NCBI GenBank assembly: GCA_965367815.1
Contig: CBDUKN010000015.1
Location: 1-64,000 of the forward strand
Source of the DNA: an uncultured Thermoprotei archaeon
GTDB taxonomy: Archaea; Thermoproteota; Thermoprotei; Thermofilales; B15-G2
Direction of reading: 5' to 3'
Length of the DNA stretch: 64,000 nt
Shown piece after piece: positions 7,829-47,546 of the stretch (positions are counted from its first letter, which is position 1; every line of letters starts with the position of its first letter). Made by a program: the position numbers and the translations under genes. A model generated the notes under the pieces. It did not search any database and was not told where the DNA came from. It worked only from the letters and a program-made list of their open reading frames with translations.

Positions 7829-8851
7829 CTAAATCGTCCTCAGCACGTCTCTAATGCACTTCATTCTCTCCTTGTATATCTCCTCTATCTCTTTAGTGAA
7901 CCACGATGCTTTGCGAGAAATTTCTAGAAGTTTTTCAAGCATATGCAAACTTTTCTCTAAGTGACCCTTTATATCGCCTGGCTCATAGTCGTATCCATTG
8001 AAGAGCCTAGGCTGTCGCTCGCTCCAGTCGCCAGGCTGATCTGCTCCAGGAGCATAGTAGGGCAACATTTCTCTCAGAACCTCTATATCTACTACTGCTC
8101 CGAGACACTTAAGTTCATGGCGCTCACTCCACCAGCTTTCATCGGGGCCATATAGGGGCATGTCATAGTTATTGTAGGCTAGAGGCGTTAAGTCCTGGAG
8201 AGCAAAAACATAGATTTCCTCTACTCCTACTTCTTTAGCATACTCAACTATCTTTTTAGCACCCTTCTCTGAAATAAATCCGTAAAGCACTAGCTGAGAC
8301 ACTGTAGATGAGCTACGTGAAACAAAGTCTTTTAGAGCCTCTACTGCAGAGAGACCAGTAGCTACAGTATCTGCTAGCAGCAAGGCAATATTACTTCTAG
8401 GCACAGAGCTGTAGTCGCGGTAAACTACCTTAGGTTTACGCTCAACATGGTCTCTAAAAGACCCCTCCTCATACTTTACTCTAACATATGCTTCAGCGAA
8501 ACTTTTACCTAAGTGTTTTAGTGCCTCGTGCACCATATAGCCTTTCGATGCTCGAAGAATATGTAAGAGTACTATGGGCTCCTGTACCTCTATGATAGAA
8601 AATAGTGCTTTCAGTGCTTTTATAGCAGCCCTTCTGTTTAACTCAAGGAACTTCTCTCCGACAATTTCAGGCCTACATGCGATGCTCCTCGACTCGAGTG
8701 TATCTACTGAGTAGACTTCTGCCGGAAAATCTACTTTGGTTTTATATACTCTTACATTTTCTTCCTTAAAAACTAGCTCTGTTAAATCAACTTTAATGCA
8801 GTTTTCTTCAATTATTTTATCTAGCAATGACTCAGGTATATGTAAATGCAA
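7829..8851 (-). CDS. type I phosphoribosyltransferase-fold protein (UPRT-like, divergent)
   Basis: VLLHILRAS and LLLADTVATGLS resemble the UPRT ILRAG and PRPP-binding loops. Confidence 0.6.
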   Translation of the reverse strand: MHLHIPESLLDKIIEENCIKVDLTELVFKEENVRVYKTKVDFPAEVYSVDTLESRSIACRPEIVGEKFLELNRRAAIKALKALFSIIEVQEPIVLLHILRASKGYMVHEALKHLGKSFAEAYVRVKYEEGSFRDHVERKPKVVYRDYSSVPRSNIALLLADTVATGLSAVEALKDFVSRSSSTVSQLVLYGFISEKGAKKIVEYAKEVGVEEIYVFALQDLTPLAYNNYDMPLYGPDESWWSERHELKCLGAVVDIEVLREMLPYYAPGADQPGDWSERQPRLFNGYDYEPGDIKGHLEKSLHMLEKLLEISRKASWFTKEIEEIYKERMKCIRDVLRTI

Positions 8852-8911
8852 GTGCCCTCCCCAAAGGATGACTTAAACTATATAAGTCTAACTCAAGTCA
8901 CACAAATATTG

Positions 8912-9523
8912 ATGAAAAAGATTTTATTAGTTTCCATAATTGCACTAATATTAGTATTAACTGCTTTAGTCTGCTATATGAGATATGCTAAACTTAAAGA
9001 AAAACCATCTGAAATAAAAATGTTGAACTTGTTGCTGTACCTTCTACAATTAAGAAAACTTCAGTTAAGTTATCGTGGACTGTTTTTCGGCTAAAATTTA
9101 CAGCAAGTTCTTCGCCTACAGTACTAAAGAAACTGTTTCCGAAGAATACTCTAGTTAGTAAATATATCAGTTAACGTCGTCGGCTCAAATAGAGCAGTAT
9201 TTACCTTCAGATCCTACTGGCGCCCTGAAGCTAAGTACTTCTGGGAGTTATGGTATATTAAGCGAGACCTACCTCCGGGAAAACATGTGCTGAAAAAGTT
9301 TTACCCTAAGTGGGCTATTTTCTTAAAAGATACTGAAGTAGAGTTCAATATAACTTGCAGTAAAGGCGCTGCTTCGAGCGAAGCTCTCTTTATACTCTTA
9401 AAGCCAATTCAAGTATCGGCACCCACTCTAATTGAAGTAGAAAATGCGCCTAACATCACGTGGCTTAATGTTAACTTAAATGAATATGGTGCACTTTTCT
9501 TAGAGAAAACTCCTCCAGGAGGC
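8912..9523 (+). pseudogene. 5' part of an exported or membrane-anchored protein gene, frameshifted and interrupted by the TnpB element
   Basis: MKKILLVSIIALILVLTALVCY signal anchor at 8912; the last fragment ends ..EKTPPGG at the element's left junction. Confidence 0.65.
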
Positions 9524-9652
9524 TTTTGAGTGAGTATGTTTGTTTTCTTTTGTTCCACTAGTATGGGAGTCTATAGGGTATTCCTAGTCATTAATTATAG
9601 TTCTAGAGAATTCTCACTAAACTAAAATAATGGGAAGAAATAGTAATTTAGT

Positions 9653-9882
9653 ATGAGGAAACTAGTAGGAAAAATGATGTGTCCACGATGCAGAAACAAA
9701 ATTGATAGACTTTTAGTTTAGTTATCTTACCCTTTGAAGGAGAAGTATGGCTCGTAAGAAACAACAAGTGGAAAATAGAGTTAATCAGCGACACAGCCTT
9801 CCAGACAATAAAATGTCCTGCATGCGGCAAAGAAATAGAATACATTATATTAAACAAACAAAAATATCAAGAAAACAAATAG
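9653..9882 (+). pseudogene. small Zn-ribbon protein (CPRC...CPAC), frameshifted cargo gene
   Basis: MRKLVGKMMCPRCRNKIDRLLV* then, after an apparent 4-nt duplication (TTAGTTTAGTT), ILPFEGEVWLVRNNKWKIELISDTAFQTIKCPACGKEIEY. Confidence 0.6.
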
Positions 9883-10317
9883 AAGAAATATTCCTCAATC
9901 AAATAAAAACAATATAAAATCACCGCTTCCTCCTATTCCACCAGTATAGAAATCTGTAGAGTACTCCTATTAAGCTTTCCTCTACAATAACTATTACTGT
10001 GTCTTTGTCTTATTAATCTATGCTCCAATCACTCTACTACTCACCTTAAACTCTTCTGGTAGCCTATACTTAAGCTACTCTTCGCTTTCTTGTAGCGGTG
10101 GCTCTTTGTCGAAGAAATTAAACTAGTTTTTAAACACATAAACATTTAGAGAACATAGCTTACACTTATACTACTGTATCTTGAGAAATATTTATTGCTG
10201 AAACATGGAATACTTTCAGTATAGTAAAACTTTTCCTACACTACTTAAATAGCCTCAAACAACACTATACTTAAATGAAGCGAGAGTAGCATGAATCTCT
10301 CCCAGTGAGGTGGAATT

Positions 10318-11508
10318 ATGGAACTTTACGTAGCTTTTAAATTTAGAGTAAAGATTCCAAGAGAAAAAGCAGAAGAAATCTATAGGGTAATGAGGAGGTT
10401 TCGAGAGAATATGAAGAAAATCAGGGTTTTAGTAAAGTTGCTGAGAAAGCAGGGTTATAGTGAGGAGGAAGCGTTTAAAATTGCTATTGAGCGCTATAGA
10501 ATAAAGAACTTGATTATGCCGGGGAGTCAAAAACAAGTGAGAGCCTATATTACTTCAAAGTTACACAGAGCTGATTCACTAATTCTCTTAAAGCGTTTTG
10601 GCTACAAGTATACTTGCTATTTTGTAGAGAAAGATAGCAGAGTTTTCTTAAGAATTGGTGGTGAAATTGACGCATGGATTCCGGTGAAAAAAGGCATATT
10701 CAAGGCTATTAAGAAGAGGGAGAGCTGGGGGTGGAAGCCTGTCGAGCTAGTACTTAAGTTCCTCAATTTTACTAAGAGAAATGGACTCTTTGAAGTAATT
10801 GTAGTTTTCAAGGTTTCAGTAAAGAAGATTTCTATTGAGGACATTAGAGAAGCTTTAAGAAGTAGTAGACTCTCCTTGATTTCAGTTGACATCAACGCTA
10901 TTCATGGAGCGTACTTCGGGTTATTTAGAGTACAGGATAGTGAACTTAAATTAATTGGAGTAAGGAAAACGAATGTTAATTGGCGGCTAGTTGAATATCA
11001 TCTTAAGAGGAAGGCGGAGCTTCAGAGTAAGCTTAAGAAGAAAGGGCTTTCTTCTAGAGAATTTAGAGAGCTTAGGCAGCTTGAGAGAAAGATCGGCAAT
11101 TTAATAGTGTGCCCTAAAAGGAGAGGTCTTGGTATTCTACGTGAATTAATTAGAAGAGAGCAGAGTCTTGGGAGAAAAGTTGTTGTAGTAATAGAAAATA
11201 TTAGTGAAAAAGATGTGCAGGGGATGTGTAATAGTAGTCCAAAAATAAACAGAGCTATAAAATGGTTTATGAGTGGGTGGCAGAAGCGAATACAATTTCT
11301 GGCTAAAATTGAAGGAGCATATTTCATGACTGTAAATAAGGCGTTTTCTTCAAAAAAGTGTCCAGTATGCAGTAAAGTAATGAAGTTTATTGACAATAGA
11401 TGGCTTTACTGTAGTCAGTGTAATAGGGAGTATCATAGGGACGTAGCTGCTTTAGAGAACCTAGCGAAAAGAGCATTAAAGAAAATAAAGAAACATAATA
11501 CTTCTTAA
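10318..11508 (+). CDS. tnpB: RNA-guided endonuclease TnpB family protein
   Basis: RuvC-I SVDIN, RuvC-II VIEN, Zn finger CPVC..CSQC, RuvC-III HRDVAALENL; GAGGTG Shine-Dalgarno upstream. Confidence 0.9.
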   Translation: MELYVAFKFRVKIPREKAEEIYRVMRRFRENMKKIRVLVKLLRKQGYSEEEAFKIAIERYRIKNLIMPGSQKQVRAYITSKLHRADSLILLKRFGYKYTCYFVEKDSRVFLRIGGEIDAWIPVKKGIFKAIKKRESWGWKPVELVLKFLNFTKRNGLFEVIVVFKVSVKKISIEDIREALRSSRLSLISVDINAIHGAYFGLFRVQDSELKLIGVRKTNVNWRLVEYHLKRKAELQSKLKKKGLSSREFRELRQLERKIGNLIVCPKRRGLGILRELIRREQSLGRKVVVVIENISEKDVQGMCNSSPKINRAIKWFMSGWQKRIQFLAKIEGAYFMTVNKAFSSKKCPVCSKVMKFIDNRWLYCSQCNREYHRDVAALENLAKRALKKIKKHNTS

Positions 11509-11510
11509 GA

Positions 11511-11686
11511 GCCTCCTAGGGACAATTGTCCCTAGGAGGGACGTTATCTAGTCAGAACCCGACCCCGTGACGAAGCCCCTAGCCCCCGCGATGTGGGTGG
11601 GTGTTTTCAATGAAGAGAGGGGAATGGAAACCAGACTCCTCTCCAAGAAAACCCCACCAAAAACCGGAGAAACAGATCTAGGAGGC
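11511..11686 (+). ncRNA. putative omegaRNA (TnpB guide scaffold) at the element right end
   Basis: GC-rich region just after the tnpB stop: perfect 28-bp palindrome 11512-11539, long hairpin 11596-11658, and 11511-11519 complementary to 11678-11686. Confidence 0.7.
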
Positions 11687-12385
11687 AAGTTAATAGCTTA
11701 CTCTCTTGAAGAAAAATACTACATTATCGCCGGGTATGCTATAAAGTGCTGGACTCCTACAGGTATTATACCTAGCTATGGTGTTCATAGACTACTTATT
11801 CCGAGAACAGTAGTAAGGTGGAGAGCACATGTAAGTGGAGGACATGTAGTTAAAGGAGGATTTCTCGTAAAAATCTTCACTGGAATAAGAGCAGTCATAG
11901 TACTGGATAATTCTGGAGAAAAATACAGTCTCTTAATTTTGGGCTCAAATAAAACAGGCTCGCCTGAATACTCGGCGAAACTAACGCCTCAAGTAGCTTA
12001 CAGTTTACCAGTAGGAGAAAACTGTGAAGGAATACTATTAAACATTAGCGTCGATACCGCTCCTGCAGCAATAGAACTTAAGTTTACGGCTAGTGAGAAG
12101 ATAGCTTCCGGGAAACTGCATATAAGAATTAATTTAATTAACTCGAGCGGTAATGTCGTCTGTACAACTCCGGCTACGATTCTTGAGGGAAAATATTTCA
12201 AAGCAGTACTGTTAGCTCCGAAGAAAGGAGACTACATGATACAAGTCAATTTACAGTACTTGTCCCAGGATAAAGTCTCTCTAACTATGACTCTAAGTAA
12301 GGTGGAGAAAACAAGTCTAAGCTCCTTTAATTACAACAAAGAATGGAACGTATGGGTAGGAATATTAAAGTCGATTAAACAGTAA
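11687..12385 (+). pseudogene. 3' part of the host exported-protein gene split by the TnpB element
   Basis: In frame with 9287..9523 after excision; the first ~40 codons of track ORF 11567 are element sequence. Confidence 0.7.
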
Positions 12386-13301
12386 TCTCTTCAATAGAAT
12401 CAAAGGATTTAACTAGAAATACTTTCAGTTTATTTAGCTTCAAAAACTGCTTAAGCTCTATGTAAAATCTCTTTTCTTCACTTTCTTTAATTAAAGCCCC
12501 TGCAGCTACCGCGTGTCCTCCACCTCCCATTTTCTTAGCTATTACTGAGCAGTCGTACTTTCCTTTAGACCCGAAGTGGAGCTTAAGTCGACCTCTTTTC
12601 TCGGGGACTATTATGCATGTAAACATCGCTCCTCTTTTCTCAAGCTCTATTGATAGAGCCCTGCCGTGAATATCTAGCTTACTGCATATTCTCACAACCA
12701 TTACTGGCTCGACGCGAATCCTATCAGCCAACTTAATGGTGTTTTCTCTCGTTTCTCTATGTCTCTCAATCCATTTCCTTACTTCACTTAACTTCAGTAC
12801 TTCAAGACCCTGTTTAGCCAAGTTTTTAACTAAAAATATTTTCCCCCGATAGTCTGATCCCTTAACTGCATCATTTAGATCCCATGCTTCTTGAGAAACA
12901 ATATTTGCTGTGTCTGCTTCAACAGCTATTTCGACAAGCTTTTTTACTAAAGGGTTTTCCTCAAGACCCATTGCCTTAGCCATTAAGACAGCTGCAGCAG
13001 GAGCCTCTGGGTCGTGGTAAACTATTTTCGCTCTAGGAATATTCGACTTATGGTGATCAACATAGACAACTGTTTTAGGAGGACACGGCAAGTCTGCGAC
13101 AATATCCCATTTCACATACTTCATCCACCCGACTTTAAGGGGATAGTGTTCTAGCTCTCTAGGCCTCGCTAAAACTACTACAGCATCAGGGTGCTTAATG
13201 TAAGCTATAGTCGCCGAAACTATGCCGTCGACATCTTCCTCATGCGAAAGAATAAGAGGTTTTCGAAACAGCTTAGCGTAAATAACATCAATTAGCCTCA
13301 C
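12375..13301 (-). CDS. DHH/DHHA1 family phosphoesterase
   Basis: SHEEDVDG, YVDHH and GGGGHAVAAG motifs. Confidence 0.9.
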   Translation of the reverse strand: MRLIDVIYAKLFRKPLILSHEEDVDGIVSATIAYIKHPDAVVVLARPRELEHYPLKVGWMKYVKWDIVADLPCPPKTVVYVDHHKSNIPRAKIVYHDPEAPAAAVLMAKAMGLEENPLVKKLVEIAVEADTANIVSQEAWDLNDAVKGSDYRGKIFLVKNLAKQGLEVLKLSEVRKWIERHRETRENTIKLADRIRVEPVMVVRICSKLDIHGRALSIELEKRGAMFTCIIVPEKRGRLKLHFGSKGKYDCSVIAKKMGGGGHAVAAGALIKESEEKRFYIELKQFLKLNKLKVFLVKSFDSIEEITV

Positions 13302-43901: not shown

Positions 43902-44759
43902 GTGCCTAAGAAAGTGATTATAGATACTGATATCGGCGACGACATAGACGATGCTTTAGCATTAGCTTTAGCCGTCTCTCCTCCCGAGCTAGAGGTTTTA
44001 GCCATAACTACTGTTTACGGTAGAGTAGATTTGAGAGCAAAGCTTGCCGCTAAATTACTTACCTCATTAGGCAGACGCGATATTCCTGTAGCTAAAGGTT
44101 CTTCAAAAACTCTCCAAAACTATCTTCCAACACATATCCCGTGTCAAGCTGATGCACTAGGCCCTAAGGAAGAATACGATATTGTCGAAGACGGCTTAGC
44201 TTTAATGGAAGAGCTTCTAGACACAGAAGAAGATGTAACAGTAATTACGCTTGGCCCTCTTTCTAATATAGGTTTTCTTCTGAAGAAAAGACCTGAATTA
44301 GCGAAGAAAACTAGATTTGTTGTAATGGGCGGCTGCTTTTTCGAAAATAGGGTAGAGTACAATATTAGGTGTGATCCCGAGGCGGCCTCTCTCCTACTAG
44401 AGTCGGGAGCCGACATCACTATGGTAGGACTCGACGTGACATTAAAGTGTGTTATGCCGGACACTATGGTTCAAAAGCTTAAAGAAAACCCTAGGCTTGC
44501 CGTTTTAAGAAGCTATCTTGAGGCATGGTCAAAGAGAGTTAAGCATAACCCTATACTACACGATCCTCTGACAGTGGCTGTCTCGTTTAGAGAAGACTTA
44601 GTTAAAGTGTCTCCTGCTAGAATTGCCGTCGTATTAGATGAACCTAGCAGAGGCTTAACTAGAGTTATTAAAGGAAACCCCAACGCTAAAATATGCGTAG
44701 AAGTAGATGCAGAAAAGTTCCTTCAGCTATATTCAGAGAGAGTTATTGCTAAGCACTAA
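43902..44759 (+). CDS. inosine/uridine-preferring nucleoside hydrolase
   Basis: DTDIGDDIDD, LGPLSN, MGG, EYNI and HDP. Confidence 0.95.
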   Translation: MPKKVIIDTDIGDDIDDALALALAVSPPELEVLAITTVYGRVDLRAKLAAKLLTSLGRRDIPVAKGSSKTLQNYLPTHIPCQADALGPKEEYDIVEDGLALMEELLDTEEDVTVITLGPLSNIGFLLKKRPELAKKTRFVVMGGCFFENRVEYNIRCDPEAASLLLESGADITMVGLDVTLKCVMPDTMVQKLKENPRLAVLRSYLEAWSKRVKHNPILHDPLTVAVSFREDLVKVSPARIAVVLDEPSRGLTRVIKGNPNAKICVEVDAEKFLQLYSERVIAKH

Positions 44760-46099: not shown

Positions 46100-47008
46100 A
46101 TGTTCGACGTAGTTATCATAGGGGGAGGCCCAGCTGGTTTGACTGCAGCTATATACTGTGCTAGATTCAAGCTTAAGACACTAGTCTTAGAGAGAGAAGT
46201 AATTGGAGGTAAAGCGGCTTACGCGCCTCTTATTGAAAACTATCCTGGTTTTCCTGAAGGCGTTAAGGGATTTGATTTAGCTCAGAAAATGTACGAGCAA
46301 GCTACTCGAAGCGGAGCTGAAGTACTGTTCCCAGAGGAAGTAGTTGAAGTAGATTTCTCTTCTAAAGTAAAGAAAATTGTTACGCGGAGCGGGAAGACAT
46401 ACGAAGCTAAAGCTGTCATTATCGCTACCGGCCTGTCTAAGAAGCCTCAAATCAAGGGCGTTGAAGAGTACTTAGGAAGAGGAGTCTCTTTCTGCGCAGT
46501 CTGTGACGCTCCCTTCTATAAGGGGAAAACTGTCGCTGTAGTAGGTTCTGATGAAAAGGCTTTTGAGGAAGCTATTTACTTGCAGGAGTATGCTTCGAGA
46601 GTTATTTTAGTGACTCACTCGGAGAAAATCGAGGCTCCGAACGTTCTTGTCGACAAGTTTGTGGAGAAAGGAGGTGAAGTAATAGAAGGTAGAGTTCTTG
46701 AAGTTAAGGGAGACTCTAAAGTAGAGAAGATTTTAGTTAAAAAAGGAGAAGAAGTAGGCGAGCTGAAAGTCGACGGCGTGTTTATTGAGGTAGGCGAGAC
46801 TCCTTCAACAGATCTGTTTAAGAAAGCTGGAGTAGAAGTCGATGAAAAGAACTTTATTAAAGTAGATCCTTTGCAGAGAACTAGTATTGAAGGTGTTTTC
46901 GCGGCGGGCGACTGTACTGGTAGAGGGCTGCAAGTAGTTGTTGCAGCAGGAGACGGAGCTGTAGCTGCGCTTTCTGCATACAAGTACATTAAGAGCACTT
47001 TCAAGTAG
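46100..47008 (+). CDS. trxB: thioredoxin reductase
   Basis: GGGPAG, ENYPG, CAVCD and FAAGD. Confidence 0.9.
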   Translation: MFDVVIIGGGPAGLTAAIYCARFKLKTLVLEREVIGGKAAYAPLIENYPGFPEGVKGFDLAQKMYEQATRSGAEVLFPEEVVEVDFSSKVKKIVTRSGKTYEAKAVIIATGLSKKPQIKGVEEYLGRGVSFCAVCDAPFYKGKTVAVVGSDEKAFEEAIYLQEYASRVILVTHSEKIEAPNVLVDKFVEKGGEVIEGRVLEVKGDSKVEKILVKKGEEVGELKVDGVFIEVGETPSTDLFKKAGVEVDEKNFIKVDPLQRTSIEGVFAAGDCTGRGLQVVVAAGDGAVAALSAYKYIKSTFK

Positions 47009-47042
47009 TAAATTAAATTTAACTGTCCTATAGTAAGTTTTT

Positions 47043-47546
47043 GTGAAAATCTATATCACAGTCATAGGGAGCTCTGTTATACCAAATAAACGTGTATATG
47101 ATTTAGCATACAGGATAGGCTATGAGATAGGCAGAAGGAAAGCAATTTTAGTGTGTGGAGGTAGAGGAGGAGTAATGGAAGCTGCTGCAAAAGGAGCTAA
47201 AGAAGCTGGAGGAACTACTGTCGGTATTTTGCCTGGTTTTGATAGAAGCGAAGCTAACCCTTACATAGACATAGTAATACCTACAGGCATGTCTCATGCA
47301 AGAAACGCTATTAATGTTCTAGCAGGAGACTCCATAATAGTTGTTCACGGTGGTCCAGGGACTTTATCAGAAGTTGGCTTAGCTTTAGCTTATGGTAAAC
47401 CTGTTATTGCCTTAAGAACTAGCGGAGGTGTAGCTAGTCTCTTGGCAGACCGTCTGATAGGAAGCTTTAAAGTACATGGTGCAGATTCTCCCGGAGAAGC
47501 CGTAGAAAAAGCTATCTTACTATCTAAAGCCAGAGAAGGACTATAA
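47043..47546 (+). CDS. TIGR00725 / LOG-family (SLOG) protein
   Basis: CGGRGGVMEA, ARN and GGPGTLSE. Confidence 0.9.
   Translation: MKIYITVIGSSVIPNKRVYDLAYRIGYEIGRRKAILVCGGRGGVMEAAAKGAKEAGGTTVGILPGFDRSEANPYIDIVIPTGMSHARNAINVLAGDSIIVVHGGPGTLSEVGLALAYGKPVIALRTSGGVASLLADRLIGSFKVHGADSPGEAVEKAILLSKAREGL

Follow-up and report, generated by a model that had tools for sequence, protein, structure and literature searches.

Organization of the locus

The 64,000-nucleotide stretch of DNA analysed here, referred to as the window, is positions 1 to 64,000 of contig CBDUKN010000015.1 in the assembly (GCA_965367815.1; 99.4% complete, 37 contigs) of an uncultured Thermoprotei archaeon. A gene in this window is interrupted at 9516–11678 by a 2163-bp non-autonomous TnpB/omega-RNA element (an obligate mobile element-guided activity, or OMEGA, element), with a leeway of the TC or the 10-bp repeat that the two junctions share. 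The 5′ part of the host gene (9287–9515, transcribed rightwards) is an orphan open reading frame (ORF) ending NEYGALFLEKTPP, and its 3′ part (11687–12385) is transcribed in the same direction; both appear in the ORF list, and they are joined in the protein P0002 and, for the 5′ part, in the empty-allele contigs described below. Between them lie a left module built of gene remnants on the leftwards-transcribed strand, an intact rightwards-transcribed tnpB gene (10318–11508), and a right end of 170 nt (11509–11678) that has the properties of a structured RNA.

The insert is flanked by a direct repeat. The motif AGGAGGC occurs at 9517–9523 and again at 11680–11686, 2163 bp apart, as an earlier note on this DNA had reported, but the repeat is longer than that note said; it is really 10 bp with a single mismatch, TCCAGGAGGC at 9514–9523 on the left and TCTAGGAGGC at 11677–11686 on the right (TCcAGGAGGC versus TCtAGGAGGC), nested in a 17-nt repeat of 76% identity at the same 2163-bp spacing. 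The pair is not coincidental, since the density of the 7-mer is only about 0.1 per kb on each strand in this genome of 38.6% G+C (246 plus-strand copies in 2.45 Mb, and 11 in the window), and the chance of a second copy lying exactly at the other junction is ~1e-4. No terminal inverted repeats were found at the element ends. The length of the insert is a multiple of three (2163 = 3 x 721), and its removal therefore fuses the two parts of the host gene in frame.

Empty alleles of the host gene

The element insertion is polymorphic in natural populations of a hydrothermal-vent archaeon. A public-run search with window positions 8600–12600 matched 17 runs, all of DNA and for the most part metagenomes from hydrothermal vents or sediments, and alleles were compared in Logan contigs from four of these (X1, X3, X4 and X5). 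In three runs, each from a different study (X1, X4 and X5), one contig joins position 9513 directly to 11677 with two ambiguous letters (TC) at the joint, skipping exactly 2163 bp, whereas run X3 has the filled allele only, in a 4107-nt contig with 60 differences. Run X1 carries both alleles, the filled one at a depth of ~9 and the empty one at ~16. The empty allele reads ...ACTCC|TCTAGGAGGCAAG and has the T form of the repeat, giving a CTA (Leu) codon, where the left junction in the window has CCA (Pro).

The host protein tells the same story. The sole uninterrupted form of the host gene among 5.8 billion protein clusters is P0002 (204 aa; five members on four contigs), in which the fusion reads EKTPLGGKLIAYSFEEK; the protein runs through NEYGALFLEKTPLGGKLIAYSFEEKYHII and resumes past a 107-aa gap. 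The in-frame host fusion predicted in the earlier note thus exists in nature, in P0002 and in the X1, X4 and X5 contigs, and its view of the insert as a mobile TnpB element with ends legible in the sequence is borne out in the same way, since both kinds of record skip exactly 2163 bp; the empty allele that it proposed to look for is present, with both flanks contiguous, in three of the four runs compared. The 107-aa gap reflects a second structural polymorphism in the same gene, a 321-bp in-frame segment (11728–12048, rightwards) that is missing from the empty haplotype, where 11727 is joined to 12049, with two ambiguous letters, in the same X1, X4 and X5 contigs; P0002 lacks the matching 107 aa.

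The interrupted gene is an apparent orphan, with no homologue in 40 relatives by DNA search or by protein search with the 3′ gene half. We note that a same-frame ORF lies upstream of it (8846–9286), with a signal- or transmembrane-like start, MKKILLVSIIALILVLTALV, and several stops before the GTG at 9287, and the host gene may itself be what is left of a longer gene for a membrane or secreted protein that had already been disrupted. Outside gene callers also predict a 264-aa protein, P0001 (11591–12385), that starts in the right end of the element and runs into the 3′ part of the host gene; if real, it would be a chimeric ORF made by the insertion.

The TnpB nuclease

The tnpB gene (10318–11508) encodes a protein of 396 aa in which D191, E293 and D375, together with Cys348, Cys351, Cys365 and Cys368, are invariant in 10 homologues, so that a RuvC D-E-D triad is present with a C4 zinc finger between RuvC-II and RuvC-III, as the earlier note had read from this copy. 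The N-terminal half is divergent, also as proposed there; Pfam recognizes the TNB domain only (PF07282, 3e-10), with neither the OrfB_IS605 nor the HTH domain detected, and the NCBIfam scores are all below their cut-offs (guided_TnpB 25.2 of 100 bits, IS607_TnpB 24.6 of 350, IS200_TnpB 23.1 of 425) because the clade is too divergent for those curated models. Among solved structures the best sequence match is a Cas12m (1.2e-4).

The predicted structure is more informative. An AlphaFold model built with 22 sequences (predicted local distance difference test score, pLDDT, 83.8; predicted template modelling score, pTM, 0.76) matches Cas12f and TnpB chains in Foldseek with probability 1.00 and template modelling (TM) scores of 0.50–0.60, and the fold extends across the whole protein length, including the half that Pfam does not recognize. 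The top matches are the Cas12f chains 8j1j (4.9e-13, TM 0.57) and 9nzs (6.1e-13, TM 0.59), and the TnpB chains include those of ISFba1 (8iaz, 9.7e-12) and ISDra2 (8h1j, 1.5e-9). Pairwise ratios of nonsynonymous to synonymous substitution (dN/dS) among six tnpB copies are 0.10–0.32, with one pair saturated, and the intact gene is thus under purifying selection.

Relatives are few. A second copy in the genome (C21:40454–41623; C-numbers denote contigs of this genome) shares 67% amino acid identity, and the clade as a whole comprises 12 proteins of 63–100% identity among the 5.8 billion clusters, named in their sources, where a name is given, as hypothetical proteins from a Thermoprotei archaeon metagenome-assembled genome. 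An exhaustive phmmer search of 1.84e9 representatives returned only two sequences at E<=1e-10, the first being its own cluster and the second a sequence of 34% identity; at E<=1e-3 there were 40. The clade is present at five metagenome loci; it is absent from all 119 other genomes of the class and from the assembled-genome contig set. From the conserved residues, the substitution pattern and the model, we consider that the 396-aa protein is a real and selected TnpB-fold nuclease of a tiny divergent branch.

The putative right-end RNA scaffold

The 170 nt downstream of tnpB (11509–11678, rightwards) are G+C-rich and form a putative omega RNA or right-end RNA (reRNA) scaffold. The region 11505–11700 folds with a minimum free energy of -79.1 kcal/mol (z -5.9), and an alignment of eight right-end copies (the window, C21, C17, C2, and the tnpB loci L020, L021, L023 and L024) gives a consensus of 38 pairs in five helices, at 11512–11523/11528–11539, 11540–11542/11551–11553, 11584–11590/11664–11669, 11596–11608/11647–11658 and 11619–11622/11640–11643. 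Compensatory changes are found at 16 of the 38 pairs and 97.5% of cells are paired, compared with 1–5 compensatory pairs and 34–59% of cells in a slid-partner control, and none of 500 shuffles reached the observed covariation. There is no Rfam match in 9000–12500.

Conservation stops at ...GAAACAGRNC, where CAGRNC corresponds to window positions 11673–11678, and the following bases differ in every copy (TAGGAGG, TATTGAG, TGGAACT, TGGCCAG, ATCGGAG, AAGGTTC, GGCCTG and ACAAGCG). The 3′ end is thus conserved, has the character of a structured RNA and stops at the element boundary, and we take the right end as a covarying 170-nt RNA scaffold that would end at 11678.

Two of the aligned right ends are solitary copies that have no tnpB, one at C17:16595–16751 (leftwards, 88% identity) and one at C2:143497–143640 (83%), each with its own flank. 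These could be stand-alone guide-RNA genes or deletion relics.

The left module and its origin

The left end is unusual in that it is made of remnants of another gene, a 145-aa ORF that we refer to as ORFx and whose remnants read on the minus strand. The terminus itself (9516–9590, leftwards) is a remnant of the 3′ coding end of ORFx, WNKRKQTYSLKSLL, and is homologous to left ends at C7, C25 and contig C15 of a sister species (G001); runs X1, X4 and X5 show one more copy of this left end as a loose end. A second remnant (9936–10301, leftwards) is 5′-truncated with in-frame stops, and is evident from blastn and tblastn matches; both pieces match repeats at C2, C4, C5, C7, C8, C25 and G001:C15, and the first ~38 nt of the second repeat 9551–9588 at ~79% by hand count. 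The left terminus, including AGGAGGC, aligns with the last codons of ORFx (WWNKRRQTYPLRSF-stop in the sister species), and AGGAGGC itself aligns with TAGAAAC, GGAAAC, GGAAAT and GAAGAC of four other left ends.

Between the two remnants is additional sequence. As the terminus and the 9936–10089 part are contiguous in the sister species, the window segment at ~9553–9935 is an internal extra segment; it is bounded by the diverged 38-nt duplication and encodes a small zinc-ribbon ORF with two CPxC motifs (9674–9879, rightwards). The frame of this ORF is shifted by a 5-nt TTTAG duplication (9712–9716) that is missing from the X3 and X4 contigs, where the frame reads 67 aa. It has no paralogue in the genome and weakly resembles the TnpB zinc finger (42% over 19 aa).

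ORFx is open over 145 codons, without an ATG, at C2:142957–143391, and is fully intact with an ATG start at G001:C15:933–1370. In the sister species it lies between ksgA and a gene for a 92-aa protein, and as these two genes are only 145 nt apart in G000 (C18), ORFx there sits on an insertion of ~440 bp that contains no tnpB; the intergenic DNA has diverged too far for the exact ends of this insertion to be aligned. Only four ORFx protein clusters are present among the 5.8 billion. ORFx has no match in Pfam, NCBIfam or PHROG, its best ESM Atlas match (0.76) is below the useful range, and its AlphaFold model (pLDDT 40.7) is unusable.

Homology to the C21-type TnpB copies starts at the leader of tnpB (10291–10317, rightwards), which has a GAGGTG Shine-Dalgarno-like motif. 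The closest tnpB relatives (C21 and L020–L024) have nothing in common with the window copy upstream of 10291, and carry there a different, G+C-rich region of about 450–650 bp. ORFx remnants also precede members of another, larger TnpB clade of ~480 aa that has its own right end (C4, C7 and C8; within that clade the left ends of C26 and C5b are at contig ends and C8 is 5′-truncated), and at C2 there is ORFx with a window-type right end and no tnpB. Since nothing is shared upstream of 10291 and ORFx ends occur with the other clade, the element is, by comparison of its parts, a chimera of an ORFx-type left end with a C21-type tnpB and right end. The earlier note was correct that this is a mobile TnpB element; that it is chimeric, with remnants of another gene, went unnoticed there.

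The upstream regions of C21 (39990–40450), L021, L022 and L024 are conserved and contain repeated hairpin-like motifs that the window copy does not have. In this AT-rich genome the C21-type region looks like a structured RNA; a search of these loci against Rfam gave sub-threshold microRNA noise only. At C7, a frameshifted TnpB element separates two ORFs (44023–44565 and 46804–47082) that by motif reading, rather than by a tool match, are HEPN/DUF86-like and nucleotidyltransferase-like, and these are a candidate toxin-antitoxin pair split by the element.

Predicted guide and target-adjacent motif, and proposed mechanism

The right-end comparison bears directly on where the guide begins. We predict a guide start at ~11679 (TAGGAGGCAAGTTAATAG), and not at 11687, because the scaffold ends at 11678 and because the right AGGAGGC is host target. 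The latter follows from the left AGGAGGC being homologous to the last ORFx codons, so that the left copy is element-borne and the right copy, from ~11679 as judged from the empty contigs and the right-end comparison, belongs to the host. The predicted guide portion, TAGGAGGCAAGTTAATAGCTTA (11679–11700, rightwards, over an inferred length), is the first non-conserved stretch past the scaffold in the eight copies.

The two alleles give a third reason for a start at ~11679 and constrain the target-adjacent motif (TAM). Upstream of AAG, no difference separates the filled from the empty allele over 10 nt, i.e. over TCTAGGAGGC, and within 17 nt they differ only at 9511–9513 versus 11674–11676, where the host has TCC and the element AGA. 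A nuclease that is to cut the empty site and spare its own locus would need a TAM reaching these TCC/AGA bases; a TAM inside the shared 10 nt would expose the filled locus to cutting as well. We predict that the TAM is 5′-YTC, here CCTC. YTC precedes all five full left ends (CCTC, CTTC, ATTC, TTTC and ACTC), although the window copy is flanked by a 10-bp near-repeat, and RNC ends all eight right ends (GATC twice, GAGC once, GAAC three times and GGAC twice).

The earlier note had proposed a G-rich TAM (AGGAG or GGAGG) and a guide beginning (C)AAGTTAATAG; these are not supported and are probably shifted. The eight right ends diverge before AGGAGGC, the left AGGAGGC is element-borne, and the alleles are identical over the 10 nt upstream of AAG. 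Aligning other copies of the element, which that note offered as a check, goes against the proposal, as all eight right-end copies lose their similarity ahead of the motif.

Taken as a whole, the explanation that we favor is a chimeric TnpB/omega-RNA element with a guide from ~11679 and a YTC TAM, to which we assign a probability of about 70%. The RNA would read on from the scaffold into the host flank, with the guide starting at ~11679 (TAGGAGGCAAGTT...), and the TnpB-RNA complex would recognize the empty allele through a short pyrimidine TAM directly 5′ of the insertion point (YTC; CCTC). Cutting of the empty allele by TnpB would favor re-copying of the element by homologous repair, and the filled locus would be spared because its right end terminates in RNC (GATC). 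Cutting of this kind favors re-copying by homologous repair in both IS605 and IS607 TnpBs. Less firmly, we suggest movement through a double-stranded circle, which would have recombined with a host site similar to the junction of the element's right and left ends (shared core TC[Y]AGGAGGC), the recombinase being supplied in trans.

Mobilization and alternative explanations

The description of the element as transposase-less in the earlier note is correct, and the search for a Y1 or serine TnpA that it suggested finds no evident partner. There is no match to Y1_Tnp (PF01797) in the 99.4%-complete assembly, and no IS607-type TnpA; the sole gene with a Resolvase domain (C2:79428–80144) is invertase-like, with an N-terminal catalytic domain (residues 9–148) and no adjoining tnpB. 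Five tyrosine-recombinase genes are present. No match was found in the genome to DDE_Tnp_1, the only DDE family searched. When three left ends and the final ~80 nt of the right end are folded as DNA, they do not surpass shuffled sequences (z +0.6 to +1.3) and show no hairpins, and the sole strong right-end hairpin (11512–11539) is ~140 nt from the end.

Compared with the element's own right-end/left-end junction, the right half of the target matches at 9 of 15 positions, which 0.5% of random sites reach, and both halves jointly reach a level seen at 7.5e-5 of random sites. GG occurs within 5 nt of the right-end boundary in six of the eight flanks, compared with 11.7% expected (binomial tail 5.8e-5), and left ends begin RGG or RGA. 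This pattern fits integration of a double-stranded circle at a shared core, the principle established for IS607, better than the hairpin-guided single-strand route of IS200/IS605 elements. A bolder extension, which we regard as speculative and improbable, is that ORFx is or marks a new TnpB mobilization module, in which a circle would integrate at host sites that mimic its own junction over 10–20 nt and TnpB-RNA with its YTC TAM would guard the insertion; if true, the ORFx module would be a third route of moving TnpB elements, beside the Y1 and serine transposases.

Three other explanations of the junctions were weighed. The element could be of the IS607 type, in which a serine transposase would exchange strands at a GG core within AGGAGGC, the repeat nucleotides would form part of the scaffold, the TAM would be G-rich (AGG or GGAGG), and the guide would begin at ~11683–11687. 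The identical nucleotides at both junctions, the lack of inverted repeats and end hairpins, the enrichment of GG just past the right end and the RGG or RGA starts of the left ends are all consistent with this, as are the published features of IS607 elements, which include a GG core at both ends with a TGGG target and TGGG TAM (bioRxiv 10.1101/2023.11.20.567912), a measured GGG TAM for an IS607 TnpB, and, in ISXfa1, fixed right-flank nucleotides that form part of the scaffold (both PMC10711439). Nonetheless, this origin is unlikely: the genome has no IS607-type TnpA, its only serine recombinase being invertase-like with an N-terminal catalytic domain; the spacing between CAGRNC and the first GG ranges from 0 to 3 nt, with no GG at all in two of the eight flanks; and a TAM placed in the 10 nt common to both alleles would license cutting of the filled locus. 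The NCBIfam scores for IS607_TnpB and IS200_TnpB (24.6 and 23.1 bits) do not discriminate between families.

We give somewhat less credence to a classical IS200/IS605 element of the IS1341 group, mobilized in trans by a Y1 HUH enzyme as single-stranded DNA and inserted 3′ of YTC without duplication, with the repeat being a coincidence or a target preference. IS608-type elements have paired cleavage sites at their left and right ends, and YTC at five of five left flanks together with the differing RNC terminus mirrors such an arrangement; TnpB-only copies are abundant in archaea, where associations with Y1 and serine transposases have repeatedly been lost and gained (PMC10691335). Against this are the lack of a Y1_Tnp match in so complete a genome, the lack of subterminal DNA hairpins, the only strong one being distant from the end, and the ~1e-4 chance of the junction 7-mer repeat. 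Least probable, and in our view very unlikely, is that a staggered-cut transposase, of the DDE type or another, generated the 8–10-bp repeat as a genuine target-site duplication, with the element starting from TTTTGAG. A 10-bp direct repeat with one mismatch does flank the insert and is present as one copy in the empty allele, and TnpB and Fanzor genes are known inside transposons that make such duplications (PMC10691335, PMC10711439), but there are no terminal inverted repeats and no match to DDE_Tnp_1 (the sole DDE family searched), the left copy can be aligned to the left ends of other copies and to the ORFx stop-codon region of the sister species, and the junctions at C7, GGGAAAC and TGGAGGC, are alike but not identical.

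Several observations count against our favored explanation of a chimeric element with a YTC TAM. The empty haplotype is another strain, as it differs at further sites, and is no proof of a recent excision, and the C/T difference at 9516 has to be explained by polymorphism, by subsequent mutation or by crossover at TC. In this TnpB clade a left flank is defined for the window copy alone; among the C21-type relatives the left region is of another kind, its start is uncertain and the flanks are ...AAAAA and ...CAGCG, and given the chimera, the TAM with which TnpB co-evolved may differ from the present left flank. The shared TC could be element-borne, in which case only the pyrimidine at -3 would surely be of host origin (five of five, p ~0.03). 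As the ISXfa1 scaffold takes in right-flank nucleotides, there is room for a guide start later than 11679. The left half of the target matches the junction only weakly, at 9 of 15 positions with one gap (2.6% of random sites), two TnpB copies are at contig ends of the 37-contig assembly, and a transposase-bearing copy could be absent from it. There are also no RNA runs among the 17 public runs that match positions 8600–12600.

Comparison with known systems

The element is a new, sequence-isolated and divergent TnpB of a kind already known, and current understanding is not overturned. No description of this TnpB clade or of ORFx was found in a literature search, the supplements of the census in PMC10691335 lying outside that search. 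The earlier note saw here a candidate thermophilic TnpB with an unusual TAM; the TnpB is indeed divergent, but G-rich TAMs have already been measured for IS607 and a thermophilic archaeal TnpB is already characterized, SisTnpB1 being described as a TAM-dependent nuclease with a TTTAA TAM that works at 37–85 C. The unusual part is the left end made from ORFx, a gene that two TnpB clades share in this position and that is also found by itself in a small insertion. As filled and empty alleles occur in one community, the ends, the target and the candidate guide are fixed within a few nucleotides. How the many solo archaeal TnpBs continue to move is a question on which both the chimeric left end and the lack of a known partner transposase have a bearing. 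The compact 396-aa nuclease, apparently from a thermophile, could add to the available heat-stable miniature editors if the predicted YTC TAM is confirmed.

The element resembles the IS607 elements CboIStron and ISXfa1 in having tnpB followed by a right-end scaffold, which in those two reads into the flank and is here predicted to do so. Also as in IS607, an identical short sequence is present at both junctions with no inverted repeats or classical duplication, the empty site is scarless, and the crossover is purine- or G-rich. It departs from IS607 in several ways: neither the element nor the genome encodes a serine TnpA, the junctions share 10 bp and not 2, the spacing between scaffold and first GG varies, pyrimidines dominate the predicted TAM, and the IS607_TnpB score (24.6 bits) is far below the 350-bit cut-off.

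With TnpB-only members of the IS200/IS605 family, such as ISDra2 and SisTnpB1, the element shares the size of the 396-aa protein, the D-E-D triad with a zinc finger, the fold, a short motif ahead of the left end, and a tnpB that stands alone with no tnpA, whereas the genome has no Y1 TnpA, the ends have no hairpins, the protein has no Pfam OrfB_IS605 or HTH domain, and the left end is the remnant of a foreign gene. The best structural matches to the window TnpB are to Cas12f (type V-F; 8j1j and 9nzs), but the gene is accompanied by no CRISPR array and is carried, as in TnpB elements, within a mobile insert that has a right-end scaffold.

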